DNA of 43,014 nucleotides from a virus (IMGVR_UViG_3300014656_005852:1-43014); one strand, 5' to 3'. Numbered from the stretch's first letter, positions 1,167 through 39,567 are shown. Notes: generated by a model from the sequence alone, not told the origin. Numbers and translations are program-made.

Positions 1167-1904
1167 ATGCCAGATTGGTGGGAGAATAAAGAAAAGGACA
1201 GAGAAAAGAGAAGAGCGGGTCTTCAAACTTTGAAGTTAAAACCTATTGTGGATGCTAAAAATAATCCAGTTACAGAGGATGCTAAAATAGCTCGAATTAG
1301 ATTTTTGACGGATATTAAGGATGCTAAAAGTTGTTGGGTGCATGGAGTGTTGAAGCAAAGTCGTCTTGGAAAGAGATTCAATGAGGATGTATATTGTTTC
1401 TTCATGAATGATGATGTAAAGTGTAAATGGTGTTCTGATGGAGATTTCCCCAAAAGGAAGTTATATTTTTGGATATATTGCTTTGATATTTTGCATATAA
1501 GACAAGATCAAGGCAAGAAGTGGGAAAAAATCGAGTATATGGGAGATAAATATTTTTCTGAGCCTGTTAATGATATTCGTTTGTTCGTTACGGGAGTGGG
1601 AAAATCTAGCTCTACGGAGGATAAATTTATTCGTGCTGGTAAAAGATTTAAGACTTTATGTGACAGAAATTACGATTGGACAAGAGAGGGTTTAGGACTG
1701 GATACCAGTTATGATCTGGTATATGATACCGAGGCATCTGAGGAGTTATCCGAGGTAAAAAAGGCTAGAGAAAATCTTCCATCCTCTTTGGATGATATTA
1801 TTAATAAAATGAAGCCTGAATCTGAGAATGAGGCTCGACCTGATAATAAAATAGACGATGCCCCAGAGGAATTAGTTGACGAAGATTTAGAGGATTTGTT
1901 TTAA
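1167..1904 (+). CDS. Probable single-stranded DNA-binding protein
   Basis: Follows primase; strong TAAGGAGG RBS; 'ARIRFL', H..C..CKWC metal site; acidic tail ending DEDLEDLF. Confidence 0.6.
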   Translation: MPDWWENKEKDREKRRAGLQTLKLKPIVDAKNNPVTEDAKIARIRFLTDIKDAKSCWVHGVLKQSRLGKRFNEDVYCFFMNDDVKCKWCSDGDFPKRKLYFWIYCFDILHIRQDQGKKWEKIEYMGDKYFSEPVNDIRLFVTGVGKSSSTEDKFIRAGKRFKTLCDRNYDWTREGLGLDTSYDLVYDTEASEELSEVKKARENLPSSLDDIINKMKPESENEARPDNKIDDAPEELVDEDLEDLF

Positions 1905-2128
1905 TGGCTAAAATCTCTATTGGAGCAAGTGTTACAGTAAATTTCTCCAGAAAATCTATCGAATTTATGAAGCTGGATGCTAGGATTGAGGATATCGATC
2001 TGGAGATTCCTATTGATATCCAGCTTCATACTTTAGATGAGAAGTTTGATTATGCCTATGGGAGTCTTAGAAAGCAATTAAATAGTAAAATACGTGAAAA
2101 AATGGTGGGTGCTAATGGAGAGAATTAA
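1904..2128 (+). CDS. Hypothetical protein
   Basis: 74-aa ORF coupled to the upstream stop (TAATG). Confidence 0.6.
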   Translation: MAKISIGASVTVNFSRKSIEFMKLDARIEDIDLEIPIDIQLHTLDEKFDYAYGSLRKQLNSKIREKMVGANGEN

Positions 2129-2663
2129 CTGTTATCTGGCTTCTGGGTGGTTTAATCCACAACAAAAGACTGCTATGGATAAGGTAAGGAGTATTATTTT
2201 GTCTTATCCAGAATTTGATTTGTTTGCTCCATTTTATGATGGAATCGTGCTTGACAAAAGCAATGATTCTCCAGAGATGCGAAGAAAGGTTTTCGATCTA
2301 GATGTGGGCAGCATAGTCCTGGATAGGGGGAGTTTTTGTAGGAGAAAACTTACAGTGGCAATTATTGACGATTTTGAGCCCGGAACTATTATGGAAATGG
2401 GAGCCTCTGCTATTTTAGGGTGGCTAGGAGACAGAGGATATTGGATAACAGAGAAGTCGGATTATTTAGGATCTTCCTTTCTTACATTGCCAAAGGTTAT
2501 AGCCTATTCCGATGTGTCTGGGAGAGGACTTAATGTTATGCTCCAAATGGCTGTTTGGGGATTTGCTAATGGAGAACAGCAACTTAGAGAACAACTTGAA
2601 AGATTTATAATCAGGAGAGGGGCTGCCAATTTTTTGGAATTTGCAAGAGGAGATTTTGTATGA
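2115..2663 (+). CDS. Nucleoside 2-deoxyribosyltransferase / (d)NMP N-glycosidase family
   Basis: YLASGWF, VFDLD, DDFEPGTIMEMG (catalytic Glu) and NVML match the NDT/MilB-type pattern; likely start ATG 2115. Confidence 0.8.
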   Translation: MERINCYLASGWFNPQQKTAMDKVRSIILSYPEFDLFAPFYDGIVLDKSNDSPEMRRKVFDLDVGSIVLDRGSFCRRKLTVAIIDDFEPGTIMEMGASAILGWLGDRGYWITEKSDYLGSSFLTLPKVIAYSDVSGRGLNVMLQMAVWGFANGEQQLREQLERFIIRRGAANFLEFARGDFV

Positions 2664-2938
2664 TTGAGCTGGTTTTTGATGATAGGTATCGAGACTCTCT
2701 GTTAAATGGATCCAAGACTGCTACTATTAGAGGACGTAAAAAGGGTGATGTTGGGGACGTATTTGAGGCTTTTGGGGCTACTTTTAAGATTGTTGGGATT
2801 ATTTGTTGTCCTGTAGATATAGCGAAAAGTATCTGGAAGTATGATGGATTTAATTCTGAGAAGGATTTTCTGGATACAATAAAAAAATATTATCCAGAGA
2901 AGGGGGCTGTGTGGGTACATTGGATTGAGAGGGTATAA
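2660..2938 (+). CDS. ASCH domain protein
   Basis: 'F..RYRDSLLNGSKTATIR' is the ASCH GxKxxTxR motif; DGF...F and VWVH at the C-terminus. Confidence 0.85.
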   Translation: MIELVFDDRYRDSLLNGSKTATIRGRKKGDVGDVFEAFGATFKIVGIICCPVDIAKSIWKYDGFNSEKDFLDTIKKYYPEKGAVWVHWIERV

Positions 2939-3507
2939 TGGATGAATCTAATTCTGAAAAGATAGTATCTCATTTGAAAAAAACTTATGGTAGATTAACG
3001 AATACTGTTAGATATAGCACGGCTTATAAAATAGTTCCAGAGAATGTGGCAACTCATTCATATTTTGTTGTATATATTACAATGATCTTATGTGATTATT
3101 TAAAGGATTTGGGAATTAATATAGAGAGAGCTTTGCGAATGGCTCTAATTCATGATGTAGAAGAGAGCCTGACTGGGGATATAATTTATAGTATTAAACA
3201 TCATAATCCCGATTTTTCTGGTGCTGTGGACAGGTTAAATCGAGAAATAATTAATGAGATATATTCTGGGAATGAGCCTTATTTGGATTTGTGGAGAGAA
3301 TATAAGAGAGGAGACACGATAGAGTCTAAAATTGTTGAGATATCTGATAGGGTGTCTGGAGTATTATACATTTTAGGTGAGATGGAGATGGGAAATAGAA
3401 CATTGATGCCTATTTGTAAAAAATATTTAGATTTAATTTTTGAGACGAATATTCCAGGATTACAGGATTTTGTTTTTCGTTTAGCATTGGAGATTGATCG
3501 TGTATAA
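2938..3507 (+). CDS. HD-domain deoxynucleotidase (YfbR/DatZ-like)
   Basis: RY...ENVATHSY...ALIHDVEESLTGDI...K...D. Confidence 0.85.
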   Translation: MDESNSEKIVSHLKKTYGRLTNTVRYSTAYKIVPENVATHSYFVVYITMILCDYLKDLGINIERALRMALIHDVEESLTGDIIYSIKHHNPDFSGAVDRLNREIINEIYSGNEPYLDLWREYKRGDTIESKIVEISDRVSGVLYILGEMEMGNRTLMPICKKYLDLIFETNIPGLQDFVFRLALEIDRV

Positions 3508-4165
3508 TACATATGCCTACAAAATGGATGATGTATTTGATCTTACTGGAATTAGGCAGTTTGTAAAGCTTTGTCATGTGTATTCGTGTCTAGAGCATAT
3601 AGATAACCCAAAAATATTAGATGTGGGTTGTGGATGGGGAGAAGTAAAGGAATTTTTAGATAAAAATAGCTATCGATGCAATTATGTTTCTTTGGATATA
3701 ACGAATAATCGGTTTAAAGACAATAATTTTGTATGTTTCGATCTAACAAGAGGGGAATCCTTGCCATTTGCTAATTCGGAGTTCGATGTAGTTTTGATGT
3801 TAGACTCTCTTCAAAATATCGAAATCGAGTCTGGTAAGAGAGCTATCTCTGAGATTTCTAGAGTTTTAAAACAGGGTGGTGTCGTTTGTATCTCCACTCG
3901 GAATTCTTTAATGAAAGCGGATGAGGACTCCGAGCATCACCTGGTAAGATGGAATATATTGGAGTTATTGGCCACTATTAAAGAGAACTTTTTGTATGTG
4001 TCTAGAGTGTATGGAGTGAATTATGGATATAATGAGAAGGAGGTGATTAGCGATAATGGGGGTAATCCTTTAGTAGACTTTCTTCCAGATAGATTTTTTA
4101 GAGTTTTGTGTGGAGTCTATGATTGGAAGAAATGCAAGTGTGTTATGGTGGATTGTATAAAGTGA
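3494..4165 (+). CDS. Class I SAM-dependent small-molecule methyltransferase
   Basis: ILDVGCGWG, LPFANSEFDVV, EISRVLKQGG. Confidence 0.85.
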   Translation: MIVYNTYAYKMDDVFDLTGIRQFVKLCHVYSCLEHIDNPKILDVGCGWGEVKEFLDKNSYRCNYVSLDITNNRFKDNNFVCFDLTRGESLPFANSEFDVVLMLDSLQNIEIESGKRAISEISRVLKQGGVVCISTRNSLMKADEDSEHHLVRWNILELLATIKENFLYVSRVYGVNYGYNEKEVISDNGGNPLVDFLPDRFFRVLCGVYDWKKCKCVMVDCIK

Positions 4166-4728
4166 TAATAATTATTGAGGGTATCGATGGATCGGGGAAA
4201 ACTACTCTTGCTGAAGGTTTGTCCAAATATTATTCTATTCCAATATATAAGTCTTTTGGGGTTAATAGAGAATATTTTCCAGAAGGGAATAGTTATGGAA
4301 TTGAGGATGCGTGGAAAAAGGGGATAGTTGATTTTTCTGTGGCGGATTTTATTCGTCAGGTTCTGGTGAATGTAATTTTAGATAGATCTATTTTGAGTTG
4401 CTATTCTTATGGTAGGGATAACGATAGGTATTTAGTGGATAGATGGTGGGAGGCTATGCCGAAAGAAGAAGTTTTAATAATTTTTTTATATGCCGATGAT
4501 GTGAATGTCCTGCAGAGTAGAGCTAAGAATAGAAAAATTTGTGGAGTAGATTTTACCGATCTTAAGGAAGCTCAAAGTAGATATTTTAGCATTTTCTCCC
4601 TCCTTAATGGGATAAAGGAAAAAGTTTTTATGATACGGACGGATAATTGTTTGTCGGATAAAGTTTTTGAATTGGCTAAAAATAAGGTAGACGAATTGTT
4701 AAAGCAAGGAGAAAAAAAATATGATTAA
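4162..4728 (+). CDS. dNMP (thymidylate-like) kinase
   Basis: IIIEGIDGSGKTT P-loop and ILDRS motif; likely GTG start overlapping the upstream TGA. Confidence 0.85.
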   Translation: MIIIIEGIDGSGKTTLAEGLSKYYSIPIYKSFGVNREYFPEGNSYGIEDAWKKGIVDFSVADFIRQVLVNVILDRSILSCYSYGRDNDRYLVDRWWEAMPKEEVLIIFLYADDVNVLQSRAKNRKICGVDFTDLKEAQSRYFSIFSLLNGIKEKVFMIRTDNCLSDKVFELAKNKVDELLKQGEKKYD

Positions 4729-5824
4729 TGTTCACCCTAAAAGCTTTTTCGGCGATACCTATATTTTGGATAGTGAGGGTCGAACTATTTTGGACATGAT
4801 GTCTGGATCTGGAGTATATTTTTTGTGGAGATACGGAGATAAGTTTTGGCAAAATTTTAGGGAAGACAATCTTAATGCTCAGAATTTTTATGTTACAGAT
4901 GATAAGCTTGAAGTAGTAGGTAAGCTTTCTAAGATAACAGATTTTCCGAATGTGTTTTTAGTTTGTTCGGGATCGGAAGCCAATGATGCAGCAGTAAAAC
5001 TTTCTTTTAAGTATCACAGACAAAAAGGGGAAAGAAGGGACAAGGTTTTATACGCCATGGGGTGCTATTTTGGGAGGACATTTGGAGCAGTTCGATGCTC
5101 TCAGGAAAATTATCATGATTTTCTTCCACAGGATGATGTTTTTATTCCATTTCAATTTAATTCTGTTCCTAAGATTGTTCCATGGGAAAGGGTTTCGGCG
5201 TTGATTCTAGAGTATTTACCTTCTAGGAAATTGGAATTCTGGGACAATGAGGTTATAAAAGAAATTGTAGACTATTGTAAGAGGTATGATGTCAATGTTA
5301 TAGTTGATGAAATTAAGTGTGGTTTGGGACGAATGGGGAAAATTTTTGGATATTCCTATTGGAAGGATGCTATGGAGTTTGTTCCTGATATTGTAACGTG
5401 TGGGAAACCTCTAGGTGCTGGGTTTCCGCTTTCTGCTATTCTGTCTAGTTCAAAATTTTCCGATGTTATAGATTATAGGTGGCATTCGTCTACGTATGGA
5501 GGGATGCCATTTATTTCCAGAATAGCCTCTAGGACAATAGATAATCTTACGTTGGAAACTATTGAGGAGATCTCCCAATTTGGGAGGGTAGCTTTGGATA
5601 ACTTGAAAAATATCGAAGGTATAAGATTTTGTGGATGTGGAAAGTATTGGATTATTTTTGTTCCAAATGCTGATATTGTCCATAAGAAACTTCTGAATAG
5701 AGGGATATTAACTTATAATATTAATAAAGAGAATATTTCATTATTACCGAATTTGTGGTTTAATTGCGATCATTGGAGTGAATTTGTAAAGAATTTTGAG
5801 GAGGTTTTAAGTGAAGTTAGGTAA
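4721..5824 (+). CDS. PLP-dependent class III aminotransferase
   Basis: SGSEAN, GRTFGA, IVDEIKCGLGRMG, PDIVTCGKPLG (PLP lysine), HSSTYGG. Confidence 0.9.
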   Translation: MINVHPKSFFGDTYILDSEGRTILDMMSGSGVYFLWRYGDKFWQNFREDNLNAQNFYVTDDKLEVVGKLSKITDFPNVFLVCSGSEANDAAVKLSFKYHRQKGERRDKVLYAMGCYFGRTFGAVRCSQENYHDFLPQDDVFIPFQFNSVPKIVPWERVSALILEYLPSRKLEFWDNEVIKEIVDYCKRYDVNVIVDEIKCGLGRMGKIFGYSYWKDAMEFVPDIVTCGKPLGAGFPLSAILSSSKFSDVIDYRWHSSTYGGMPFISRIASRTIDNLTLETIEEISQFGRVALDNLKNIEGIRFCGCGKYWIIFVPNADIVHKKLLNRGILTYNINKENISLLPNLWFNCDHWSEFVKNFEEVLSEVR

Positions 5825-6536
5825 TGTGGTATGGATTACTGGTGCTGGAAGTGAAAATGGTTTGGGATATGCAATTGCTGAGGAGCTAGAGATCGAGGGA
5901 TATGGAACTGAAAGATTTGACAAAAAAATTGAGGGAGGTGCTATTGGACATGTTCTAGACATAACCGACGAATACGCTGTGGAGAAAGCATTCGACTCTC
6001 TAGAGAAACCATTTGCTATTGTAAATTGTGCAGGAGTAAATATTACTGGAAAGTTTTTGAGTTATTCTTTGGAGAATTTGAGAAAGACCTTTGAAGTAAA
6101 TGTATTTGGTAATTTTATCTTTACAAAGGCATTTGTGGAGGCTACTTTAGAATATGATGCTCCAAAGTATATAATAAATATAGGTAGCGATAGTGCTAAT
6201 ACTCCTAGAACAAATTCCTTTGCATACTGTGCTAGCAAGGCTGGTATACAGATGTTTACTCGATGTTTCTCTAGAGACTTAGCCAGTATGGGATATCGCA
6301 CGATTGAACTTGATCCTAGTTTAATATTAGATACAAATATGGACATTTATATCAATAACGAAGCAGCTAGGATTCAAGGACAGACGGAGGAGCAGATTAA
6401 GAGGTATCGTATGTCAAAAGTTCCTATAGGACGATTTGCCACTACATGGGAGCTTGCTAAATGGATTCCCTTTATTTTAAAGAATGGCGAGTATGCTAAT
6501 GGATCTTGCATTAGGGTTACTGGAGGGGTTATTTAA
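5811..6536 (+). CDS. Short-chain dehydrogenase/reductase
   Basis: ITGAGSENGLG, NCAG, NIGS, YCASK. Confidence 0.9.
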   Translation: MKLGNVVWITGAGSENGLGYAIAEELEIEGYGTERFDKKIEGGAIGHVLDITDEYAVEKAFDSLEKPFAIVNCAGVNITGKFLSYSLENLRKTFEVNVFGNFIFTKAFVEATLEYDAPKYIINIGSDSANTPRTNSFAYCASKAGIQMFTRCFSRDLASMGYRTIELDPSLILDTNMDIYINNEAARIQGQTEEQIKRYRMSKVPIGRFATTWELAKWIPFILKNGEYANGSCIRVTGGVI

Positions 6537-7288
6537 TTGCAAGTTGATCAAGTTTTGGATATGGATGCTATTGATATGATTAATAGTCTTCCAGATGGAT
6601 CTATCGATTTGGTGATTGCTGATCCTCCATTTCTTTCTCAGAAGGGTAGTAAAGATAGGTATAATAGAGGTTTTTCTGGGGATAAGGATAAGTATTTGGA
6701 GTGGTGTGATATTTGGATGGAGGGATGCTCTAGAAAGTTGAAAGAAACGGGAAGTATGTATACCTTTGGTGGGATTGGGATTTGGTATTTTTATGTAATT
6801 TTAGAAAAGTACATGATATATCGCAATCATATTGCATGGATTAAGAGGAATAGTATGATTGCTGTTCCCCAGTTGAGAAATTGGTTTTCGAAAGATGAGT
6901 TAATTCTTTATTTTACTAAAACCAATAAGTATATTTGGAATCCTATATATAAGGAATACGGAATAATGGGAGCTACTACTTGGCAGGATATTCCTGTGAT
7001 AACGAAGAGAATGAAGGAGTCTGTCTGTCATCCATCACAGAAACCTTTGACTTTGTTGGAAAAATTTGTTAAGGCTAGCACGAATGCTGGAGATCTGGTG
7101 CTTGATCCATTTTGTGGATCTGGAAGTTCTTTGGTAGCAGCAAAAAAGCTTGGGAGGAATTATCTGGGATGTGATATAGTTCCAGAGTATACGGAAATTG
7201 CAAGGAGGAGATTGGGTGGACTGCCTTTATAATGAAGGATGGAGAATGTGCTAGTGGGTTGTGTATAAGGGTTGTTGGAGGAGTTATA
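6480..7288 (+). repeat. Degenerate 54-bp direct repeat (6480-6533 and 7235-7288) flanking the methyltransferase gene
   Basis: KNGEYANGSCIRVTGGVI vs KDGECASGLCIRVVGGVI; 40/54 nt and 13/18 aa identical by hand alignment. Confidence 0.8.
6537..7232 (+). CDS. DNA N6-adenine/N4-cytosine methyltransferase, beta class
   Basis: ADPPF (motif IV), then HPSQKP and DPFCGSGS (motif I). Confidence 0.9.
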   Translation: MQVDQVLDMDAIDMINSLPDGSIDLVIADPPFLSQKGSKDRYNRGFSGDKDKYLEWCDIWMEGCSRKLKETGSMYTFGGIGIWYFYVILEKYMIYRNHIAWIKRNSMIAVPQLRNWFSKDELILYFTKTNKYIWNPIYKEYGIMGATTWQDIPVITKRMKESVCHPSQKPLTLLEKFVKASTNAGDLVLDPFCGSGSSLVAAKKLGRNYLGCDIVPEYTEIARRRLGGLPL

Positions 7289-7298
7289 TGGTGGATTG

Positions 7299-8304
7299 AT
7301 GGAATGCCTTAATTGTGGAATAGAAATAAATACAAAAAAATAAGAAGTTTTGTTCAGTTAAGTGTCGTGGCTTGTGGATGAGAGGCAAAACAAACGAAGA
7401 AATATTTGGAACAGATCTAGCGAGCAGAATTCGTAGCAAGCAGTCCGAAAAAGCAATGGGAAGACCTAGCAAATTAAAGGGTAGAAAGTATGAAGAAATT
7501 TACGGAGAGCGGAAAGCCATAGAGTTAAGATCCAAGAAGTTTAGAAATGTAGATCGTCATAGAAACAAAGGCAAAACTTATGAGGAAATGTATGGGATCG
7601 AAAAGGGTAAAGAACTTAGAAAGCTGCGATCTAGACAGAGAATAGATCTTAATAGAATAATAAGAAAAAAAGCTAGAAAATCCAGAGAGGGGTCTAGTAA
7701 TAGAAAAGGAATCTGGGGTGAGTGCAAAAAGGTTGTGGTTTGCGACAAATGTGGTAGGGAGATTAATACTAGAGGATATCCTAACCACGTTAAGAAGCAC
7801 TCTAGAGGTCGGGAACCCCATAAATGTTTGAACCCAAATTGCAGCAATGCGGTTGAATGGGGAAATGGTTGTTGTAGTCGCAGATGCTCCTCAATTGTTA
7901 GATGTATGAATTTAGGGAAAGAAAAAATGAGCGAAATGAAAAGAAGGTCTATGATAGAACATCCCGAAACGTGTTTGGCTAAGCTTACAGGGGGAATGGG
8001 TAGGAGCAAGACTCACATTTCTTTTCCTCAAAGAAGATTATTTGAGGTTGTAAGCAAAATAATTGGAGGAGTTGAACTAAATTATTCAGTTAATACAGGT
8101 AAAACTGTAAGGTACTTAGATGTTGCTGTTATAGGAAAGAAAATCGATTTTGAGTATGATGGGGAACAATTTCATAAAGATAGGGTAGAAAGTGATAAGA
8201 AACGGACAGAGGAACTGAATTTTTTGGGATGGAAGGTATTTCGTATCACTAAAAAGGATAATTTTGAGGAAAAAGTTTTGTCCGTTTTAAGGGAGGTGAT
8301 GTAA
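7299..8304 (+). CDS. Free-standing Vsr/DUF559-like endonuclease with DNA-binding repeats (apparent +1 frameshift near the 5' end)
   Basis: C-terminal LDVA...DFEYDGEQFH...D..R...L...GWKVFRI; three KG.TYEE.YG repeats; CxxC motifs; N-terminal MECLNC (7299) joins KFCSVKC only if one A of the A7 run at 7334-7340 is skipped. Confidence 0.75.
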
Positions 8305-8306
8305 AA

Positions 8307-11300
8307 ATGAGCGAATACGTGGACTGTCATCTTCACAGTACATATTCGCTACTTTGACTTGATGCATTTGGTACACCTCTTCAAATAGCAGAAAGAGCAA
8401 AAGAGCTTGGCAGGAAGGCTATGGCTATTACCGATCATGGAATGGTAAGTGGCATAGTCAAATTTAATAGAGCCTGCATAAATAATGGAATTAAGCCTCT
8501 TCTCGGCTGTGAATTTTATACTGTTTCTGATGCATCTGATAGATCTAGCTCAGATCGTAATCATTTAACCATCATTGCTAAGACTCAAGAAGGTTATGAA
8601 AATTTAATGAAATTGGTTACTGCAAGCTGGAAGCATGGATTTTATTATAAACCTCGAATTGATTCTAAAATGCTTCTAGATCACAACAAGGGATTGATAG
8701 TTATGAGCGGATGTTATTCGGGATCTTTGTGCCACGCTTTTAGAGAAGAAAATTTTGATAAAGCCAGAAAAATAGCAAGTAACTTTAGTAGAGTATTCGA
8801 TGGTGACTATTATTTGGAGATGCAGCCGTTAGAGCTAACATATGAATACAATAAGTTTGTCCAGGAACTATCTAGAGATTTGTCAATAAAAATGGTCATG
8901 ACCAATGACACCCATTTTGTTAGAAAGGGACAGGATAGACTTCAGAGGATACTTCATCTAGTTAGAGGGACAGATGAGACCAAATCATCTACCATCGATA
9001 CCTTGTATCCTCTAGATTCAAAGGAACTCGATGAAGTTTTGTCAAGATTTCCAGGAATAAATTGGGTAGAGGCTGTGAATAGTACTTTTGAAATAGCCAA
9101 TAAGGCTAATGTAGAGATACCAAAAACTCCAATGGTGAAATATCCAGAGGGAGAGAATAGTAATGCTATATTATCCGAAAGATGTTATTTGAGCGAAAAG
9201 TGGAGAAGGCTAAAAGATGATCCCGTGTATCAGAAAAGGCTCAAGTATGAGCTGGAAATTGTTATAAAGAAAGATTTTAGTTCATATTTTGTGCTAATTA
9301 ACGATATATGCAAGTATATGCATAAGAACGAAATATTAGTTGGTCCTGGGAGAGGGTCGTCTGGAGGAAGCTTAATCTGTTTTTTGCTTGATATTATCCA
9401 AATGGATCCAATTAAGTATGATTTAATGTTTGAGAGATTTCTTGATTTGAATCGTATGGATTATCCTGACATTGATATGGATATTCAGCCATCTAGAATT
9501 CCAGAAGTTAAAAAATATGTAAAAGAGATATTTGGAGAGGACAGAGTAGCCAGTATTGCAACATTTTCGGAGTATAGAGGCAAGAATATAATTGATGATT
9601 TAGGTAGAATTTATAAAATTCCCCATGCTGATACGAATTTATTTAAAAGTAGAATTATCCAATATTCAGATGCTGATGCTAGATATAGCTTTGGAATAGA
9701 AGACACTATTGCTAAATTTCCAGAGGTGCAAAGGGTTGTAGAAAATCATCCGGAGCTCAAAGTGGCGGTTGAGATGGAGGGGCAGTTCCGCCATATGGGA
9801 CAACATGCAGCTGGAATTGTGGTAAGCGGACAGCCTCTTTACAAATCATCGGCAGTTTATCTAAATAGAATAGGGGAGGATTTAATTAGTTGGGATTTAA
9901 AGGACTTCGAGGAGTTAAATCTTCTAAAAATAGATTTGTTAAAGCTCCAAACTCTCGATATACTTAAAAAGATTCTTGATTTAATAGGCTGGAAACCTCG
10001 AGATTTGTATAATTTGCCATTAGATGATCCGAAAGTGCTCCAAGCATTTAAAGATCTAGACATGCTTGGGATATTCCAGTTTGATGGTTATTCTGCATAT
10101 TGGGTGTTATCTCAGGTGGATATAAAGAGTATTGATGATCTCGCCCATGTTAATGCTTTGGGGCGTCCAGGACCAATAACTTCTAGGGCTGCGCATAGAT
10201 TTATTAAAGCTCAAAGAGGTATAAAGGAGGGGAATGAAATTCCAGAGCTAGAGAAGTTTACCTGGAATACTGGAGGAGAGGTTATTTATCAAGAGCAGGT
10301 CATGAGTATCGTTAGGGAGCTTGCTGGTTTCTCATGGGAGGATGCAAGTAAGATAAGAAAGATTATTGCAAAAAGTCTTGGAGTTGAAGGATTTAATAAG
10401 TTTGGGAAGCAATTTGTTGAAGGCTGTAGTAAGAATAATATTGATCCGGAGATATCCCAGACAATATGGGACAGATTGTCCGTTTTCGGATGTTTAGCGG
10501 GGAATACTCGGATATATATAGATAAAGTGTGGTCTAAAAAAGTAGAGAAAAGAAATTTTAAGACAATTAAACAGATTTATGAAGATCAAGGAAGGGGAAT
10601 TGTTCATGAAATCCCCACAATAAACATTAAAACTGGAAAAGTTTTTTTGAAGAAACCAATATCTATAGTATATAGTGGGATTAAATCTACTTATTACATG
10701 AGGACGTTGCGGAGTGGAAGAAGTAGAACAAGAGTAATTAGATGCACCAAGGATCATCAGTTTTTAGTCTCAGATGGATTTTGGAAATCTTTGAAAGAAA
10801 TCAAAACTGGGGATAAGGTTTATGCCAGTAAGCGCAGCTATTCTAGTTTTAATTATCAATGGTATTCTGGTATTGTGAATACTAAGAATATTAATAAAAG
10901 ATTTTGTGCAAATGGAGAGGTTTGGAATAAGGGACTTGCTAAATCTGATGAAAGAGTTAAAAAGTATGTTATGAAGTCAATTGCTAGCCGCTGTAAAAGC
11001 GGAGTATTTAATAATTGGGGATATGGAGAGTGCTCTGTGGCTCTAGATGGACATTTTTGTCAATCTAGTTTTGAGCTCGAATTCGAGGATTGGATGATAA
11101 AAAATAACATTCCACATAAGAGCCATGCCCATATATTGAATTCGGCGAGAATATCGGATTACCAGATAGGGGATTGTTATATTGAATTGGATGGTATGGA
11201 TCCCCCTAGAAATAAAGAGTTTTGGGATGAAAAATATAGTAATGGAGAAAGATATATTATATTGTATCCTGGGGATGATTTTGGTGGTATTCTAAAATTG

Positions 11301-12248
11301 GTTGATCCCATTATTCCAGAGAACTGTAATGGAGGTTATGAGGAGGTTTATGAAATAAAATATGCAGGGGATGAGGAGACATATGATGTTATTATGGAGC
11401 CTGATACTCCATTTTTTGTGGCCGATGGGTTTTTAGTCCATAATTCTTGGGCTTTTAATCGTAGTCATGCATTTGTTTATGCAGCGTTGGGATTTTACTG
11501 TATGTTTTTCAAATTATATTTCCCCAAGGAGTTTTATTTTGCTAATATATTTTATGCAGATTCTGAGGAAAAGCTAGAGCGTCTTCTTCTTAAATTTAGT
11601 GAGCATGGAAAAGTATTTTTGCCTAATATAAATAAGAGTGGAGTTGGATGGAGATACGAAAATGGGAATATATATGCAGGATTGGATTATTTAAAAGGGG
11701 TTGGAGGGAAGACAGCAGAGAGTATAGTCAAAAATGCTCCATATAAAGACTGGGATGATTTAGTGGCTAAAAATGGAAAGAGGATAGTGCGAAAGAATGT
11801 TCTAGAGCTTCTGAAGGCTAATGGTGCATTTGAGGATAGAGAGTTAGTGTCTAAGGCATTTGAGCTATTCAAAAAGTATTCTGATGGCTGTGATAAGGTT
11901 AAGGACATTGGCTGGGAGACGATTCGGAAGAATAGGGAAGTCAAGCTAGTGTGTTATATCAAAAATAGAACTTTATATAACCAGAAGCAAGAAGATGAAA
12001 TTAGGGGAATAACAAAGAAGTATAAGAGTGACAATCTGGACTTTATGGTTGTGAGTCTTGAGGATGATACTGGGTTGGTAAAAGCTAAAGTAAATCCATG
12101 GATATTTCCTAGATATAGGGATGTATTGATGAATTCTAAAGAATCGGAAATATTTGGAGTAATGGGTAAACAACCGTTTGAGCAAAGAACTATATGGATA
12201 ACAGATATAGTAAGATTGGAGACATTAGATGAAAGTACAGATGATTAG
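8307..12248 (+). CDS. dnaE: DNA polymerase III alpha subunit (family C) with one intein and an in-frame TGA at 8355-8357
   Basis: PHP motifs CHLHSTYSLL*LDA, AITDHG, GCEFY and TNDTH; GPGRGSSGGS; PDIDMD; HAAG; AFNRSHA; OB-fold LEDDTG; GGGAGG RBS before ATG 8307. Confidence 0.93.
10491..11444 (+). mobile_element. Intein in DnaE (318 aa) with an internal nuclease-like domain
   Basis: FG|CLAGNTRI ... CTKDHQF ... YDV...FVADGFLVHN|SWAFN. Confidence 0.92.
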
Positions 12249-12987
12249 TTTTACTCATAATCCTCTGGGAGTAATTGCGTCTGCAAAGGGGCTAATGAGA
12301 GGAATCCACAAATATCCGAGCGATTTTACAGATGAGGAGAAGGTGTTTGAGTTTAAAGATTGTACTAAAACAGCTTTGCTTGGTCCATTTGAGTTTGCAA
12401 ATTTTGTGTTTGATTTTGTTGATGTTACTCGTTCCTTTACTCATCAAATAGTGAGAACTAGAACAGCCAGTTTTGTTCAGGAGAGCATGAGATTTAGTGC
12501 CAAGGTAGGAGAACAGTTCAAATATTCAGTTCCAGACTCGGTAAGAGATATTCCTAATCAGGGGGGGACTGCATTATATCTGGGCATTATGGAGAATATT
12601 CAGAGATGTTATGAGAATTTAATTGATATTGGGATTCCAGTTGAGAATGCCCGTGGAGTTCTTCCAACAAATATTTTAACATCTATAATTATGGGGATAG
12701 ATTACCGCAATTTGGTCCAAATGTGTGAGAGTCGGCTATGTCATCAGACCCAAAAGGAGCATCGGGAGGCTATGTTAATTGTAAAAGACTTGGTGATGGG
12801 AGTGGAGCCTCTTATGGGCAATTATTTGCAGCCCTCTTGTGGGCATTTTGGATTTTGTTCTTGGGAGGGAAGCTTAGATAGAAAATGTCCTCTACAGGAA
12901 GTGTATCCATTCAGAAGCGAGATTGTTGAGAATCATAAAAAGATAAAAGGAGTTTTGAAAAAGAATGGAAATGGAGGTAGTGTATAA
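12229..12987 (+). CDS. thyX: Flavin-dependent thymidylate synthase-like protein (divergent)
   Basis: FEF, TRSFTHQIVRTRTASFVQESMRF, ENARGVLP, RLC. Confidence 0.85.
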   Translation: MKVQMISFTHNPLGVIASAKGLMRGIHKYPSDFTDEEKVFEFKDCTKTALLGPFEFANFVFDFVDVTRSFTHQIVRTRTASFVQESMRFSAKVGEQFKYSVPDSVRDIPNQGGTALYLGIMENIQRCYENLIDIGIPVENARGVLPTNILTSIIMGIDYRNLVQMCESRLCHQTQKEHREAMLIVKDLVMGVEPLMGNYLQPSCGHFGFCSWEGSLDRKCPLQEVYPFRSEIVENHKKIKGVLKKNGNGGSV

Positions 12988-13783
12988 GAGAAATAGAAAT
13001 GCCATAATTTGTGGGGATTGTGTAGAGGTTATGAATAAATTTCCTGATGGGAAAATAGATTTAGTAGTGACAAGTCCTCCATATGGTAATTTTAGAGATT
13101 ATAAAGGTTATTCCTTTAATTTTGAGGCTATTGCTAACCAATTGTTTAGAGTTGTTAAAGATGGAGGTGTGGTGGTTTGGATAACTGGGGATGCTACAAT
13201 GGGTGGTTCTGAGACAGGAACAAGTTTTGAACAGATATTATACTTTAAAAGTATTGGGTTTAGATTGCATGATACAATGATATATGTAAAAACAGGAATT
13301 GCATTTCCATCTACCCAAGCTCATGCTAGATATCATCAAGTGTTTGAATATATGTTTGTTTTATCAAAAGGGAAACCCAAAGTGTTTTGTCCTATTTGCG
13401 ATAGGGATGTAGATAGAACTATAGATTATACAAAAAAGACAAAAAGAGATGTAGATGGGAGAGTTAAAAATATGCATACTAAAAATATGGATAAGCAGAT
13501 TTGGGGGAAGCGTTATAATTTATGGCAGTATTCTGCGGGAATAAATGTAAGTAGCAAAGATAAAATATCGTTCAATCATCCTGCTACTTTTCCAGAGAGG
13601 TTAGCTGAAGATCATATTTTATCTTGGAGTAATGAAGGAGATATAGTTTTAGATCCGATGTGTGGAAGCGGAACAACTTGCAAGATGGCCATGTTGAATA
13701 AGAGGAAGTTTATTGGCATTGATATTGCTAGAGAGTATTGTAATATTGCTAAAGAAAGAATCCTAAAATATGAAAAAATTTAG
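12965..13783 (+). CDS. DNA methyltransferase, beta class (probably N4-cytosine)
   Basis: VTSPPY, HPATFP, DPMCGSGTT. Confidence 0.9.
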   Translation: MEMEVVYKRNRNAIICGDCVEVMNKFPDGKIDLVVTSPPYGNFRDYKGYSFNFEAIANQLFRVVKDGGVVVWITGDATMGGSETGTSFEQILYFKSIGFRLHDTMIYVKTGIAFPSTQAHARYHQVFEYMFVLSKGKPKVFCPICDRDVDRTIDYTKKTKRDVDGRVKNMHTKNMDKQIWGKRYNLWQYSAGINVSSKDKISFNHPATFPERLAEDHILSWSNEGDIVLDPMCGSGTTCKMAMLNKRKFIGIDIAREYCNIAKERILKYEKI

Positions 13784-14312
13784 TTTTTGTAAGAATTGCT
13801 CTTTGATAGATAAACCTATAGTCCACGGTCAGAAGGGATCTAGAGATGATGTTGTTTTGATTGGAGAAGCTCCAGGGAGAGATGAAGTCGAAGAAGGTTG
13901 TCCATTTGTGGGTAGAGCAGGAAAACTTCTAGGTAGGATTTTATCTGATTTGGGGTATAATAAGAAGGATTTTTATATTTCGAATAGTTGTATTTGTCAT
14001 CCGATCGATGAAAATGGAAATAATAGAAAACCTAGCTTGTCTGAAATTTCCTGTTGTAATGATAGGTTGTTAAGGTCGATAGAAAAGATAAGTCCTAGAG
14101 TTGTGATTTCATTGGGTGCTGTTGCATTATTCTCTCTAACTGATATAGAACCTCTAGATAAAATAGTTATGTCTAAATATGTTGGAAAAGTTCTTGATAG
14201 TAAAAATGGATATAAAGTTTTTTGTATGTATCATCCAGCTTTTATATTGAGGAATAATAATTTTGAGGATATATTTAAGAGACATTTGGGGAAGGTGTTA
14301 AGTAGGTTATGA
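13770..14312 (+). CDS. Uracil-DNA glycosylase family 4 (Fe-S)
   Basis: CKNC, IGEAPG..E...G.PFVGRAG, N...C.P...NRKP...C, YHPA. Confidence 0.9.
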   Translation: MKKFSFCKNCSLIDKPIVHGQKGSRDDVVLIGEAPGRDEVEEGCPFVGRAGKLLGRILSDLGYNKKDFYISNSCICHPIDENGNNRKPSLSEISCCNDRLLRSIEKISPRVVISLGAVALFSLTDIEPLDKIVMSKYVGKVLDSKNGYKVFCMYHPAFILRNNNFEDIFKRHLGKVLSRL

Positions 14313-14779
14313 ACTGGGATAAATATTTTTTGGGTATAGCCAAAGCAGTATCGAAGAAGAGCCATTGTTTATCGGTTAAAAGAGGGTGTATTATTGTGAG
14401 AGATAGGCAAATATTAAGTGCTGGGTATAATGGTCCTCCTAGGGGCTATCCAAATTGTGATGATATTTATTCAGAATGTCCTAGAAAAACCCTAAATTTC
14501 AAGTCTGGTGAAGGGTTGTATATCTGTCCCTCTGCTCATGCAGAGGCTAATGCAATAGTTCAAGCCGCTAGAAATGGAGCGTCGGTAAATGGATCAACTT
14601 TGTATTGTAATTTTAAACAAAAGCCTTGCAGAGAATGCTCTAAGATAATCATTAATTCTGGAATAATTAAAATTGTTACTATGGGAAATCCTGTAAAGTA
14701 TGATGAGAATGGATTAACAGGAGAGGATATTCTTAATACTTGTGAAATAAATGTAGTAAACGGAGAGTTGAATGTCTGA
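14309..14779 (+). CDS. dCMP deaminase
   Basis: GYNG.P, HAEANAI, PCREC. Confidence 0.92.
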   Translation: MNWDKYFLGIAKAVSKKSHCLSVKRGCIIVRDRQILSAGYNGPPRGYPNCDDIYSECPRKTLNFKSGEGLYICPSAHAEANAIVQAARNGASVNGSTLYCNFKQKPCRECSKIIINSGIIKIVTMGNPVKYDENGLTGEDILNTCEINVVNGELNV

Positions 14780-15767
14780 AGTGGAGTCTGTAATAAAAGA
14801 TCTGAAGTCTGACAAAAAATTTAAGGATGTGATGATTTCTAAGGGGAGCAATCCAGATCTTGTAATAAAGAAGCTTCCATTCGAAGTGCCTATGCTTGAT
14901 AACTTGCTTGGAGGAGGCTTGCCTATAGGAAAATATACATTGATATATGGATCGTATTCTGTAGGGAAGACATTTCTTATTCAGAAAATTATCTCATCTA
15001 CTCAGAAAAAATGTATAAGGTTAGCATATATAGATGTAGATAAAAGTTATGAGCCAAGTTGGTGGAGTATTGTGGGTGTTGACATAGACAATTTGATAGT
15101 GGCTCAGCCCAATACTGGGGAGCAGGTTTTCGACTTAGCTCTCCATTTGGTGGAGTCAAAATTTGGCTTGGTGATTATAGATAGTTTAGATTTAGTAGTT
15201 CCAACTGCTGAGGTAGAAGCAGACTTTGGTAATCAGACGATGAACTTAAGCTTGTCAAGGGCAAAATTGATAAGTACGGGATTAAGAAAGATAAAGGCTG
15301 TTAATACGGATACAACTTTGGTTTGTGCCAATCATATTAGTGAAGGAATAGGTGCATTTAGTCAGTGGAAAATTCCTGGAGGAAGAGCTCAGGAAGATTT
15401 TGCAAGTGTGATGATGTGGATATCAAGGGGAGCGAATATTAAGGAGAGCGAAGTAAAGAAGAATGGTGCTGAGGATAAGAGAGTAGGATTTAATATAAAA
15501 GTGATGCTTGAGAAAGACAAAATTATGGGAAGAAGATATGACTCCTGTCAGTTGCCATTTATTTTTGAAGGTGGAATTATTGATGATGTCTCAGGACTGT
15601 TCGAGATTTGTCTATCACTTGGAATAATAAAGAAAAGCAAGTCTACATATGCATTTCTTGATCAAAATATTTTTGGGAAGCTCAATGTTAAAGAATATCT
15701 GTCTAATAATCCTGAAGTTCAGGAGGAGCTCAAAAAGCAGGTTAGAAAAATTGAGAAATATTACTAA
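14772..15767 (+). CDS. recA: RecA-like recombinase
   Basis: LGGGLP.G, GSYSVGKT Walker A, QPNTGEQ, IIDS, PGGRA. Confidence 0.9.
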   Translation: MSEVESVIKDLKSDKKFKDVMISKGSNPDLVIKKLPFEVPMLDNLLGGGLPIGKYTLIYGSYSVGKTFLIQKIISSTQKKCIRLAYIDVDKSYEPSWWSIVGVDIDNLIVAQPNTGEQVFDLALHLVESKFGLVIIDSLDLVVPTAEVEADFGNQTMNLSLSRAKLISTGLRKIKAVNTDTTLVCANHISEGIGAFSQWKIPGGRAQEDFASVMMWISRGANIKESEVKKNGAEDKRVGFNIKVMLEKDKIMGRRYDSCQLPFIFEGGIIDDVSGLFEICLSLGIIKKSKSTYAFLDQNIFGKLNVKEYLSNNPEVQEELKKQVRKIEKYY

Positions 15768-16044
15768 AAAGAGATTTACTGAAGGGCAGATGCAATTACA
15801 AAAAATAATTGAGGATCTTGGTTTTGAGACCGTTTTAGAGAAACAGTTCGGAAGGTATATAATAGATATATACTTAGAGAGTGACAATAAGGGAATAGAG
15901 TATGATGGGGTTGGACATTATAAGAGAAGAGATGCAAAACGTGACAAGTACTTGAAAGATAATTTTGGTATAGATATTTTGAGGATTGCAGATTTAGACG
16001 ATCCAAAGTTAGAAGATAAGATAGTTAGATTTTGTGAGACATAG
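15649..16044 (+). CDS. DUF559/Vsr-like endonuclease (true start probably near 15751)
   Basis: YIIDIY...IEYDGVGHY...D..RD..L....GIDILRI. Confidence 0.8.
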   Translation: MHFLIKIFLGSSMLKNICLIILKFRRSSKSRLEKLRNITKKRFTEGQMQLQKIIEDLGFETVLEKQFGRYIIDIYLESDNKGIEYDGVGHYKRRDAKRDKYLKDNFGIDILRIADLDDPKLEDKIVRFCET

Positions 16045-16856: not shown

Positions 16857-17396
16857 ATGAAATATAAAACCTTAGTAGTAGACTCTCCATGGCAATATAA
16901 CAATAGAAGAACCGGTGGTAGCATGAGTTCAGGTTCTGTCCAGAAGTATGAGGTGATGTCCCTTACTAATATTTGTAATTTACCTGTTCGTAATGTTATG
17001 GAGAATGATTCTGTGTGCTTTTTATGGTGCACAGTGCCATTAGTACAATATGGATTTAGAGTATTGGAGACTTGGGAGTATCAATACAAAACAATGCTTT
17101 TTTGGAAGAAGTCTAATTGGGGAATGGGCTTTTGGTTTAGAGGCCAAGTAGAAATTTGTCTTTTAGGAATTCATGGTAAAATTAAACCATTCAGATATCA
17201 GAAGTCTAATTGGTTTATAGGCAAGAATAGAGGGCATTCACGAAAGCCGGAAGAATTTTTTGCTCTCATTGAGCCTGTGGCAGAACTGCCTAGATTAGAG
17301 TTATTTGCTTCTAATAATCGTAATAATTGGACTTGTATTGGTTTAGGGGCCAATGGACAGAGAGTTGAGGATTTTTTATTGAATAGTGAGGTGTAA
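16857..17396 (+). CDS. MT-A70 family adenine methyltransferase
   Basis: VDSPW, FLW, W.K...GMGFWFRG..E, HSRKP, RLELFA. Confidence 0.9.
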   Translation: MKYKTLVVDSPWQYNNRRTGGSMSSGSVQKYEVMSLTNICNLPVRNVMENDSVCFLWCTVPLVQYGFRVLETWEYQYKTMLFWKKSNWGMGFWFRGQVEICLLGIHGKIKPFRYQKSNWFIGKNRGHSRKPEEFFALIEPVAELPRLELFASNNRNNWTCIGLGANGQRVEDFLLNSEV

Positions 17397-32499: not shown

Positions 32500-33672
32500 A
32501 TGCCATTACCAAGACATAATACACCAGAGTGGGAAAAAGAGGCCGCTTTTTATTTAAGAGCTAGTGAAGATGAAGTAAAGGAGAGAGCAGAAGCTCTGAA
32601 AATACTATATCCTTCTTACCAGAGGAGGATGAGGGAAGCAGGAATATTTAAATATAGAAGAGACGATATTCCAGAAATCAATGATACTGCTCTTACTGAT
32701 TTAGAACGAACTGTGTTAGATATAGTTAGTAAGCAAACAGTTAGTGTTAGTGAAATAAGCAGGAGAATAGACAGATCTTCTGAGACAGTAATAAAGACTA
32801 TAGATTCACTGCGAGCAAAGCATTATGAAGTAGAGCTGGATGAGATTAGGCACGAAGTGTCTATTCCAACTGCTCCTAGAGGAGATGTTGCTTCTACTGA
32901 ATTCACTTATTTTAGAAAATTTTATCGAATAGGCTTGGTATCAGACACTCATTTAGGGAGCAAGTACCAGCAAGTCACGGCTTTATATGACGCTTATAAA
33001 ATATTTGATGAGAGAAAGACAGATTTTAATTTAGTGGTTGGAGATGTTCATGATGGTATAGATATGTATAGAGGACATCGAGATGAAATATTTCTATATG
33101 ATGCCTCTCAACAATTGAATTATAGTGCTGAAGTATTTCCTAAGTCCATTAGAGGCACGAAGACCTATGTTATTGGTGGCCAGCATGATTATTGTTTTAT
33201 GAAGCAGAATGGTTATAATATTATAGAACATCTTTGTGAAAAAAGGGAGGATTTGGTGTATAGAGGCTTCTATACAGCTAAATTCAACATTAAAGGAATT
33301 CTTCTTGAGATGCAGCATCCAGGAGGAGGCATTGCGTATGCTTTATCATATGCACCTCAAAAGATGATAGAGAGTATAGTACATTTTATGCTCTCTGCTG
33401 TCACTGGTTTAGGTGAAGCCAGGGCTAAATTGCCGCAATTTCTTGCTTTTGGACATTACCATGTGCCAGTTCATTTGCCCCAGTATATGGGTGTTGATGT
33501 CTGTGGCCTCCCATGCTTTCAGAGCCAGACAAAGTACCTGCAACAGAAGAGGAAGATGCCCATTGTTGGATGTGCGATTGCAGAACTCTGGTTAAATGAA
33601 GTCAATACTCTTAGCTCATCAAATGTGGAGTTCATTATCATGAATGACCGAATCAAAGAGAATGACTATTAG
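32500..33672 (+). CDS. HTH plus calcineurin-like metallophosphoesterase
   Basis: SDTHLG, GDVHDG, GQHD, HP, GHYH; winged HTH at residues ~65-120. Confidence 0.88.
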   Translation: MPLPRHNTPEWEKEAAFYLRASEDEVKERAEALKILYPSYQRRMREAGIFKYRRDDIPEINDTALTDLERTVLDIVSKQTVSVSEISRRIDRSSETVIKTIDSLRAKHYEVELDEIRHEVSIPTAPRGDVASTEFTYFRKFYRIGLVSDTHLGSKYQQVTALYDAYKIFDERKTDFNLVVGDVHDGIDMYRGHRDEIFLYDASQQLNYSAEVFPKSIRGTKTYVIGGQHDYCFMKQNGYNIIEHLCEKREDLVYRGFYTAKFNIKGILLEMQHPGGGIAYALSYAPQKMIESIVHFMLSAVTGLGEARAKLPQFLAFGHYHVPVHLPQYMGVDVCGLPCFQSQTKYLQQKRKMPIVGCAIAELWLNEVNTLSSSNVEFIIMNDRIKENDY

Positions 33673-34108
33673 GAGGCAGAGAATAAATGCTCGTACCAGG
33701 AGAAAGCTGAGGTTATCTTCTTATAGGAAATGGCTGAATCCAGTATACAAAAGTAAGACTGTGCAAGCCATAATGAAGGCGGCTCATAAAAGTCCTAATA
33801 AAAAGGAAAAATTACTTGGTTCATTATTGGATGAATGGTTTCCAAACAGATTCAAGTTTGTAGGTAATGGAAAACTTATTCTTGATGGTAAATGCCCAGA
33901 TTTTATAGATGAAAAAAATAGATTATTAATAGAATTATATGGCGATTGGTGGCATAAAGGGGAGACCGAGGAGCCAAGAATCAATCATTTTAAAAAATTA
34001 AATTATGACACTTTAGTGGTATGGGAGCATGAGTTAGAATATCCTAAAATATTATATAATAAGATTAAGGAATTTGTTGAGAAAGGAATATTAAATGATA
34101 TGGAATAA
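33644..34108 (+). CDS. Vsr-like endonuclease
   Basis: CPDFI...IELYGDWWH...LVVWEHE. Confidence 0.8.
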   Translation: MTESKRMTIRRQRINARTRRKLRLSSYRKWLNPVYKSKTVQAIMKAAHKSPNKKEKLLGSLLDEWFPNRFKFVGNGKLILDGKCPDFIDEKNRLLIELYGDWWHKGETEEPRINHFKKLNYDTLVVWEHELEYPKILYNKIKEFVEKGILNDME

Positions 34109-35720: not shown

Positions 35721-36062
35721 ATGGAGAGAAAAGAGATTATAGCAAAGAATATTAGCTGGCTTGCTGGTAAGTGCATGAGTTATATAGATGTTACTATAGA
35801 GGATTCAGGAGTTGATAAGCATTCAAAGAAAGTAATGATGAAGAAATTATTTAATGAGCAAGTATATGGTCTTGGAGATTATTTGCTGGATAATGATGAT
35901 ATTGGGGAAGGGTGCAAGAGATTACTTGATAGTTTGGCTAGATTAGTGGTTACTGCTATAGGAGATAAATCTCAAAGAAGTCAATTTGTGATATTGATTT
36001 CTAGAAAAATAAATGAATTTAAGAATAGATTTAATGATGATTTATTAGAAAGGATGGATTAG
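35721..36062 (+). CDS. Hypothetical protein
   Basis: AGGAGG RBS before ATG 35721. Confidence 0.6.
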   Translation: MERKEIIAKNISWLAGKCMSYIDVTIEDSGVDKHSKKVMMKKLFNEQVYGLGDYLLDNDDIGEGCKRLLDSLARLVVTAIGDKSQRSQFVILISRKINEFKNRFNDDLLERMD

Positions 36063-39566: not shown

Positions 39567-39567
39567 G

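Follow-up and report, generated by a model that had tools for sequence, protein, structure and literature searches.

The viral DNA record IMGVR_UViG_3300014656_005852 (positions 1 to 43,014; "the window" denotes this whole stretch of 43,014 nucleotides) is linear, about 50% complete, and coding almost wholly on the + strand. It encodes, in order, a primase, a protein like single-stranded DNA-binding protein (SSB), a cluster of seven genes, a DnaE-type DNA polymerase, a ThyX-fold protein, uracil-DNA glycosylase (UDG), dCMP deaminase, RecA, RuvC, ribonucleotide reductase, and the portal and head genes. The seven open reading frames (ORFs) of the cluster are all on the + strand, with successive overlaps of 1 to 14 bases (Table 1); an earlier note on this DNA had described them as seven coupled or overlapping genes for an NDT-family N-glycosidase, an ASCH protein, an HD nucleotidase, a methyltransferase, a deoxynucleoside monophosphate (dNMP) kinase, a class III aminotransferase and an SDR, a description confirmed by the ORF overlaps, Pfam, PHROG, a PDB profile and predicted structures. 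Its placement of the cluster between primase/SSB and DnaE is right, except that a 74-aa ORF precedes the NDT gene and that a DNA methyltransferase and a DUF559 ORF precede DnaE; likewise, the ThyX, dCMP deaminase and UDG that it put after DnaE are present, the ThyX being divergent in sequence and not in direction, and the order being ThyX, DNA methyltransferase, UDG, dCMP deaminase. Together, these genes probably make some amine-bearing thymidine derivative. A more specific proposal, tentative and held at somewhat less than even confidence, is that HD and NDT release deoxyribose, which the ThyX-fold protein, called here ThyX*, attaches to C5 of dUMP, that SDR, aminotransferase and methyltransferase add an amine or methylamine, and that kinase and DnaE place the product in DNA.

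As for the family assignments, Pfam names five of the seven products (HD, methyltransferase, kinase, aminotransferase and SDR), while the NDT had no Pfam match and the ASCH protein neither a Pfam nor a PHROG match. The predicted structure of the latter resembles clusters of ASCH proteins and N4-acetylcytidine amidohydrolases (TM 0.87–0.90); its sequence likeness to YqfB is weak (E 0.5), with the K-T-x-T-I-R motif retained. Lys and Thr of the YqfB Lys-Thr-Glu triad align in this weak match and the ASCH fold is present; the Glu position appears to be Asp. For the kinase, GTG at 4162 is the likelier start, in preference to TTG at 4123. The region is not an assembly artefact, since it is matched, often at 99% or more, by short contigs of three additional DNA runs (X3–X5); none of them spans the operon. 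RNA-library contigs (run X7) match parts of NDT, the methyltransferase-kinase and aminotransferase-SDR junctions and the end of ThyX*; they are no sign of transcription and were not counted.

Table 1. Genes of the seven-gene cluster and its surroundings in the window.
Product	Position	Strand	Evidence or location
74-aa ORF	1904..2128		between SSB and NDT
NDT-family N-glycosidase/deoxyribosyltransferase	2115..2663	+	phrog_7995 4e-8; predicted structure; PDB profile match
ASCH (PUA-like) protein; possible nucleotide binder or amidohydrolase	2660..2938	+	predicted structure
YfbR/DatZ-like HD nucleotidase	2938..3507	+	Pfam HD_3/YfbR-like E 5e-22/4e-20; phrog_7076 5e-17
class I S-adenosylmethionine (SAM) methyltransferase, small-molecule type	3494..4165	+	Methyltransf_11 1e-14
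dNMP kinase, thymidylate-kinase-like	4162..4728	+	Thymidylate_kin 8e-8; phrog_761 7e-17
class III aminotransferase, ArgD-derived, substrate site remodelled	4721..5824	+	Aminotran_3 2e-44
classical SDR, ThyX*-module lineage, probably NAD-dependent	5811..6536	+	adh_short 5e-24; trees
N6/N4 DNA methyltransferase	6537..7232	+	Pfam; at SDR 3' end
DUF559 nuclease-like ORF	7372..8304		between SDR and DnaE
DnaE-type DNA polymerase with intein	8421..12248	+	Pfam
ThyX* (ThyX-fold flavoenzyme without His53 and Tyr91; Pbunavirus clade)	12229..12987	+	
DNA methyltransferase	12965..13783		between ThyX* and UDG
uracil-DNA glycosylase	13770..14312	+	Pfam 5e-28
dCMP deaminase	14309..14779	+	Pfam 4e-22

Regarding ThyX*, its closest cultured matches are proteins of Carpasinavirus, Wifcevirus and Pbunavirus (30–34%; LMA2 gp59 33%), and its AlphaFold model (pLDDT 91.6) matches T. 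maritima ThyX TM0449 in Foldseek (E 2e-12, TM 0.63–0.67). It shares with this canonical enzyme the fold and all the FAD/dUMP residues (Arg78, Arg80, Ser88, Arg90, Arg147 and Arg174), whereas Leu50, Thr77 and Phe89 stand in place of His53, His79 (of the RHRx7S motif) and Tyr91. In a quick tree of 81 rows, ThyX* falls in a clade of 65 on a long branch (SH-aLRT 100), separate from 16 canonical rows; these comprise 11 of 27 loci (single-domain proteins; L206 was set aside, as were weaker matches, most of them tandem) and five viral proteins, one being a poorly aligned fragment of SP-15 gp9. The clade includes proteins of Pbunavirus LMA2, Wifcevirus Bas101, XcP1, Gordonia Sadboi and Mycobacterium Hawkeye. 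Gln75, Arg78, Arg80 and Arg90 are present in all 65 rows; His53 and Tyr91 occur in none of them, versus 14 and 15 of the 16 canonical rows, respectively, and His79 in three, versus 15 of 16. The ThyX of the cultured, 207-kb Rhizobium phage RHph_Y65 (L228, 3857–4657) also lies inside the clade, which makes this phage a candidate for unrecognised modified thymine.

In canonical ThyX, His53 stacks the folate pteridine, and Tyr91 is catalytic, its mutation slowing flavin oxidation about 1000-fold (PMC11940539); ThyX also methylates dUMP from free formaldehyde via a flavin carbinolamine (PMC8316439). Judged from its residues, ThyX* would keep flavin and dUMP binding with an altered donor site. That it is no more than a dTMP synthase is improbable; in that case, routine pool management would be the task of dCMP deaminase, kinase, HD, NDT and UDG, and SDR, aminotransferase and methyltransferase would work on an unrelated small molecule. 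The intact arginines and Ser88 are consistent with this role, as are the 86 bits scored on TIGR02170 thyX (cut-off 87.9) and the four DNA methyltransferase genes of the window, along with under-represented GATC (0.66) and GCGC (0.60), as in restriction-exposed phage; such biases, including a CpG ratio of 0.47, are not diagnostic. The clade-wide loss of His53 and Tyr91, instead, speaks against it, and so do the companions of ThyX* in other phages.

At least 121 ThyX* loci occur in IMG/VR among the matches listed (the best 80 of one scan and 41 new ones from another, many on short contigs); His53 and Tyr91 are both absent in every one of these 121. Near ThyX* there is a flavoprotein in 110 loci, a HAD/DUF protein in 98 and DnaE in 85; less often, the neighbours are an SDR (34), a glyoxalase-fold (VOC) protein (19), a kinase like that of the window (13), or a small methyltransferase (12). 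Clade membership and an adjacent DnaE hold for the window too, where ThyX* overlaps the DnaE stop. This fixed coupling to flavoprotein and HAD argues against plain dTMP synthesis, as does the chemistry of clade members: in Pbunaviruses F8 and 14-1, bases of 362 and 390 u, interpreted as derivatives of a sugar alcohol and of a cyclic pentose, take the place of roughly a quarter of T, within a TG motif (Yee et al., bioRxiv 10.1101/2025.03.31.646159), and Wifceviruses resist restriction without known protection (PMC11990801). Among the side observations on these loci, one (L041) has two ThyX*-like genes, at 4483 and 9983, and contigs of about 41–45 kb (L235–L244, L246, L254 and L258, the last cut short) hold flavoprotein, HAD, kinase, DnaE and ThyX*, that is, a minimal module plus kinase.

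F8 and 14-1 share with the window the ThyX* clade, the DnaE polymerase, and the loss of His53 and Tyr91. Pbunavirus LMA2, in contrast, has a flavoprotein like UDP-galactopyranose mutase (UGM) and a HAD fusion, and lacks NDT and SDR; over 20.7 kb of its sequence, nothing like an aminotransferase was found. In their place, the window encodes NDT, HD, kinase, SDR, aminotransferase and methyltransferase. The weak UGM likeness of the module flavoprotein (E 0.004), together with the TG-motif specificity in Pbunavirus (Yee et al.), would suit a route in which the amine is built on a free, activated or O-linked sugar, then joined to thymine or 5-hydroxymethyluracil, whether ahead of replication or following it; the joining enzyme would be ThyX* or else a transferase encoded in the missing half of the genome, which at 50% completeness leaves room for one. 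Some loci have radical-SAM, glycosyltransferase, TET-associated glycosyltransferase (TAGT), sulfotransferase or Nmad5 genes beside ThyX* or beside the SDR of the module, as seen in scans of 57 and 64 selected neighbours; all of these but Nmad5 would also favour this route. This route is nonetheless decidedly improbable: the dNMP kinase lies between methyltransferase and aminotransferase in the window and in one other locus (L008), and beside the aminotransferase in a further one (L234), and no glycosyl- or nucleotidyl-transferase match was found among the 49 ORFs scanned in this half genome. Genes beside ThyX* elsewhere include a DpdA (L273, 9167–10000), a TET-associated glycosyltransferase (L274, 3170–4006) and a sulfotransferase (L104, 4886–5698), an arrangement compatible with double or further modification.

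As for the SDR, that of the window and five close relatives group with the SDRs of the ThyX* module (SH-aLRT 90; FastTree 0.978, in a tree without SP-15 gp129, Carin-5 gp58 and L119). A single-query search of IMG/VR gave no relative, and a query with an alignment gave 14 loci at 24–31% identity. One SDR relative (P0042) and one ThyX* relative (P0309) are listed under the same ENA contig of 3137 bp, a hint that the two genes may be linked. The protein has the tetrad Asn97-Ser126-Tyr139-Lys143, and an Asp37 after Rossmann strand beta-2, which is usually the mark of an NAD-type enzyme. Its lineage argues against a role of the seven genes in modifying dC or dA, in which the DatZ-like HD protein would remove the canonical nucleotide, the NDT would swap bases, the ASCH protein would remove an acyl group, and ThyX* would be a separate matter. 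The best PHROG of the HD protein is annotated as dATP triphosphohydrolase, the ASCH protein resembles N4-acetylcytidine amidohydrolase, and ThyX* lies 5.7 kb from the cluster, all of which fits such a role; it is still very improbable, given also that dCMP deaminase drains dCMP, that the adenine and cytosine methyltransferases imply ordinary A and C, and that the 49 ORFs of this incomplete genome gave no match to dCMP hydroxymethylase, to PurZ or to the 7-deazaguanine enzymes FolE, QueD, QueE, QueC and DpdA.

The NDT resembles PF05014 clusters by its features and predicted structure (TM 0.73), and a six-sequence profile matches the solved NDTs of the PDB (E 8e-16). The fold and the catalytic Tyr...Glu...Asn motifs are present, and it shares the motifs YLAS, GTxxExG and GLNxML with the NDTs of SP-15, Carin-5, YerA41 and Vibrio 150E35-1. 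The best profile of the window NDT matches these same four of five phages, and not the fifth, LMA2; it matches two of 14 control genomes. In SP-15 and Vibrio 150E35-1 the NDT sits one or two genes from a ThyX-like gene, and in Vibrio 150E35-1 and GXN1 HD genes adjoin the ThyX-like gene. SP-15 has NDT gp127, FabG-like gp129 and ThyX-like gp130 nearly adjacent, and also kinase-like gp134, HD gp90 and a UDG; in a database of 14 proteins, the window gave SP-15 matches for NDT (E 1.5e-6), HD (26% to gp90), kinase (25% to gp134) and UDG (34% to gp100), and none by BLAST for ThyX*. YerA41 gp086 (L011, 11380–11916) carries a mannosyltransferase label but belongs to the same NDT family as SP-15 gp127.

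The base of SP-15 is C5-dihydroxypentyl-uracil, formed before DNA synthesis, and the title of a 1978 work cited in the same paper has ribose label entering the chain (PMC5977210). The core of YerA41 is 346 u and that of Carin-5 is 330 u, with linkers of 104 and 88 Da, respectively (PMC12686479; PMC13697223). By arithmetic, deoxyuridine plus a di-, tri- or tetrahydroxypentyl group gives 330, 346 or 362 u, and deoxyuridine plus hexose minus water gives 390 u. The NDT is predicted to free 2-deoxyribose or its 5-phosphate; it may supply the side chain, and not merely remove the canonical nucleotide as the earlier note had supposed, the pre-replicative module put forward there being otherwise supported. 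SP-15 offers a likeness to the window in the NDT of the same PHROG (found also in Carin-5 and YerA41), YfbR-like HD, FabG-like SDR, kinase-like gene, UDG, dCMP deaminase, divergent ThyX-fold gene, and in the pre-replicative C5 alkylation that is proposed here for the window (PMC5977210, PMC12686479). SP-15, Carin-5 and YerA41 differ from it in a ThyX-like gp130 lineage of about 400 aa, a PolA-UDG polymerase, and the addition of sugars and phosphate, with no amine reported in the accessible parts of these sources; the window lacks the gp130-type protein and the PolA with fused UDG of phages like SP-15 and RP13, having DnaE and a free UDG instead, and its 49 ORFs gave no glycosyltransferase match.

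The aminotransferase is ArgD-derived by its sequence matches, with 169 bits on the argD model, whose cut-off is 410. It keeps the class III (fold I) features, namely PLP Lys229 (PLP, pyridoxal phosphate), Asp196, and the FxGRT and STxGG motifs; the PLP Lys is present in all 52 aminotransferases compared. By contrast, Arg169, Ser340 and Lys199 take the place of the ArgD-type Glu/Arg/Gln site residues. Among 44 class III enzymes taken for general comparison, 31 have Glu169, 38 have Arg340 and 42 conserve the third site residue; neither Glu169 nor Arg340 occurs in a set of eight proteins made up of that of the window, six relatives and the L234 enzyme. The remodelled residues are presumably the Glu/Arg switch sites of ornithine aminotransferase. 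The aminotransferase clade has eight rows (SH-aLRT 99), three relatives being at 32–34% and three more near the top of a profile search. Searches of IMG/VR by exact peptides or alignment gave no relative, L008 was the sole locus besides the window to emerge from a metagenome scan, and GTDB yielded 80 generic class III enzymes (22–32%); a cultured match in Pseudomonas phage Y11 was rejected, as it lies among host-like chromosomal genes. L008, the sole relative with context, has methyltransferase, kinase and aminotransferase in the same order (41, 29 and 42% identity). As for the methyltransferase, every NCBIfam score is far under its cut-off, so that it may methylate N or O.

An aminotransferase is also present in L234, the best ThyX* match in IMG/VR (40%; high-GC; 2845–10672), which encodes flavoprotein, dUTPase-HAD, SDR, class III aminotransferase, kinase, DnaE and ThyX*. 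As an orthologue this aminotransferase was rejected, having 23% identity and a long branch among general enzymes, outside the clade; because it is not orthologous, it was recruited independently, and amination appears, from these sequences, to have joined the ThyX* module at least twice. This recruitment, and the low argD score and changed site of the window enzyme, are further points against the mere supply of dTMP. The idea of the earlier note that SDR, aminotransferase and methyltransferase lead from alcohol to carbonyl, amine and methylamine is supported by the SDR tetrad, the PLP lysine and the remodelled site.

The substrate on which this chemistry would act is a separate matter. One option named in the earlier note is 5-hydroxymethyl-dUMP, with amination of a sugar as its alternative. 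In such a route ThyX* would be a non-reducing hydroxymethylase giving 5-hmdUMP, which the SDR would convert into 5-formyl-dUMP, the aminotransferase into 5-aminomethyl-dUMP (257 u) and the methyltransferase into 5-methylaminomethyl-dUMP (271 u), with NDT and HD clearing dTMP and intermediates. Class III enzymes aminate aldehydes, and the Pbunavirus masses fit conjugates of 5-hydroxymethyldeoxyuridine (5-hmdU) as well. Moreover, amine-bearing C5 substituents on uracil do occur in phage DNA, as 5-NmdU and 5-AcNmdU in PaMx11 and as 5-NedU in M6 (PMC8989533). The synthesis in PaMx11 and M6 is, however, post-replicative, via a ThyA-type hydroxymethylase, a 5-hmdU DNA kinase and aGPT-Pplase, with no transaminase in the accessible part of the same paper; none of these three enzymes had a Pfam match in the 49 ORFs of the half genome, where no dedicated profile search was made. 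The folate-stacking His is lost throughout the clade, an aminotransferase is missing from 33 of the 34 listed loci that have this SDR lineage, where the glyoxalase-fold protein is often the partner and the pair would suggest epimerisation or dehydration of a polyol, and the NDT tracks phages with pentyl chains; in addition, the accessible text of Yee et al. makes no mention of a 5-hmdU peak in F8 and 14-1. The hydroxymethyl to aminomethyl route is not established, and it is unlikely. A chain derived from sugar is likelier than a one-carbon arm, because ThyX* lacks the folate-stacking His and because the characterised phages with the ThyX* clade or the NDT bear a polyol or sugar on thymine.

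In the pathway preferred here, which starts from deoxyribose and dUMP, what the sequences show directly is which genes are present, the clades to which they belong, their altered residues and the genes found together; the reaction steps are inferred. dCMP deaminase would supply dUMP, while HD and NDT would strip a deoxynucleotide to base and 2-deoxyribose (or its phosphate), draining the canonical dNMP pool too. The open-chain sugar aldehyde would then be activated on the flavin N5 of ThyX*, in a manner similar to the reaction of ThyX with formaldehyde, and reductive transfer to C5 would give 5-(trihydroxypentyl)-dUMP (nucleoside 346 u). Next, the SDR would oxidise one hydroxyl of the chain, most simply the terminal one, because ArgD-type enzymes aminate the terminal aldehydes of five-carbon chains; the aminotransferase would introduce the amine (345.15 u), and the methyltransferase a methyl group (359.17 u if on N). 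Finally, the dNMP kinase would pass the nucleotide on to DnaE, and UDG would remove stray dU. The likely purpose is to shield the DNA from nucleases, and the cationic side chain may help packaging.

Several observations weigh against this pathway. The complete set of seven genes was seen in the window only, so that the co-occurrence expected by the earlier note is borne out for genes found with a ThyX-like gene elsewhere and not for the set as a whole; a class III aminotransferase is near ThyX* in one of the 121 loci listed, and NDT, HD and ASCH in none of them, many of these being short contigs. Conversely, the UGM-like flavoprotein, HAD/DUF and VOC families are unmatched in the 43 kb of the window; although the record is about 50% complete, flavoprotein and HAD/DUF are likely truly absent from this phage, because relatives have them within a few kb of ThyX*. 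The placement of the Pbunavirus base in a TG motif suggests a post-replicative step, and ethers or glycosides O-linked to 5-hmdU would account for 362 and 390 u just as well. The loss of His53 is no proof of lost folate use, because a structure of His53Ala ThyX with folate exists (4gtf). Regarding SP-15, its gp129 is weakly similar to the SDR (25%, E 0.006), and its gp130 was rejected as a ThyX* orthologue, the profile of this family being no closer to the ThyX* clade (hhalign probability 70%) than to canonical ThyX (81%); because gp130 is a separate lineage, the SP-15 precedent runs via NDT, HD and kinase and not via an orthologous ThyX. Lastly, the use of the SDR as a marker of deoxygenated (330 u) chains was rejected as not cleanly matched, since the sugar cluster of YerA41 (346 u) encodes two SDRs of the classical type.

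Other features of the window complete the picture of the locus. The DNA methyltransferase at the SDR 3' end is probably an insertion outside the pathway; after it, at about 7205–7290, the SDR 3' end recurs in decayed form (28 aa at 61%, E 1.6e-5), which is a scar of insertion or recombination at this site. The load of mobile elements is heavy, with free-standing nuclease-like ORFs (the DUF559 ORF of Table 1, another DUF559 ORF at 15649–16044, and one at 33644–34108) and inteins in DnaE, ribonucleotide reductase and a 999-aa head protein. The four DNA methyltransferase genes are the two in Table 1 and those at 16857–17396 and 34095–34724; three are N6/N4 enzymes (the last apparently truncated) and one is MT-A70. 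A second HD-domain gene (36062–36592) is far from the cluster, and at 36763–42783 there are large ORFs without Pfam match which have a common, repeated motif at the N terminus (…LVxRxVxV…GKxFxRxQxVRPEE…) and in this resemble proteins that are ejected or associated with the head.

Hypermodification of thymidine at C5 before replication is a known kind of modification. To the ThyX* module, the window adds an NDT/HD donor arm together with SDR, aminotransferase and methyltransferase; neither this gene combination nor an aminated pentyl-uracil was found in the full text of PMC and bioRxiv, subscription journals not being covered, and Iyer et al. 2013 could mention it. The locus bridges two gene sets, the ThyX* of the Pbunavirus clade and the NDT/HD of the SP-15 type. 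The synthesis of dihydroxypentyl-uracil in SP-15 has been a question since the 1970s; for the sugar-thymidine that therapeutic Pbunaviruses carry, the accessible literature assigns no genes. A wider view, which is rather doubtful, is that ThyX* proteins would be flavin-dependent uracil C5-alkyltransferases using a sugar donor and not folate, with one chemistry underlying the bases of SP-15, Carin-5, YerA41 and Pbunavirus, and with the window encoding the first (methyl)amino-polyhydroxypentyl-uracil DNA. Phages would then mix donor modules (the UGM-like flavoprotein, or HD and NDT cannibalising deoxynucleotides) with tailoring modules (SDR and VOC; SDR, aminotransferase and methyltransferase; radical SAM; glycosyltransferase). 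The seven genes and ThyX* offer a compact, cloneable test, for which exact masses are predicted, of whether a ThyX-fold flavin couples an aldose to uracil. If true, the pathway would entail a new amine-bearing DNA base, a folate-free flavoenzyme forming C–C bonds, and a polymerase and kinase accepting bulky cationic nucleotides (dNTPs), and it would likely be an undescribed way for a virus to disguise its DNA.

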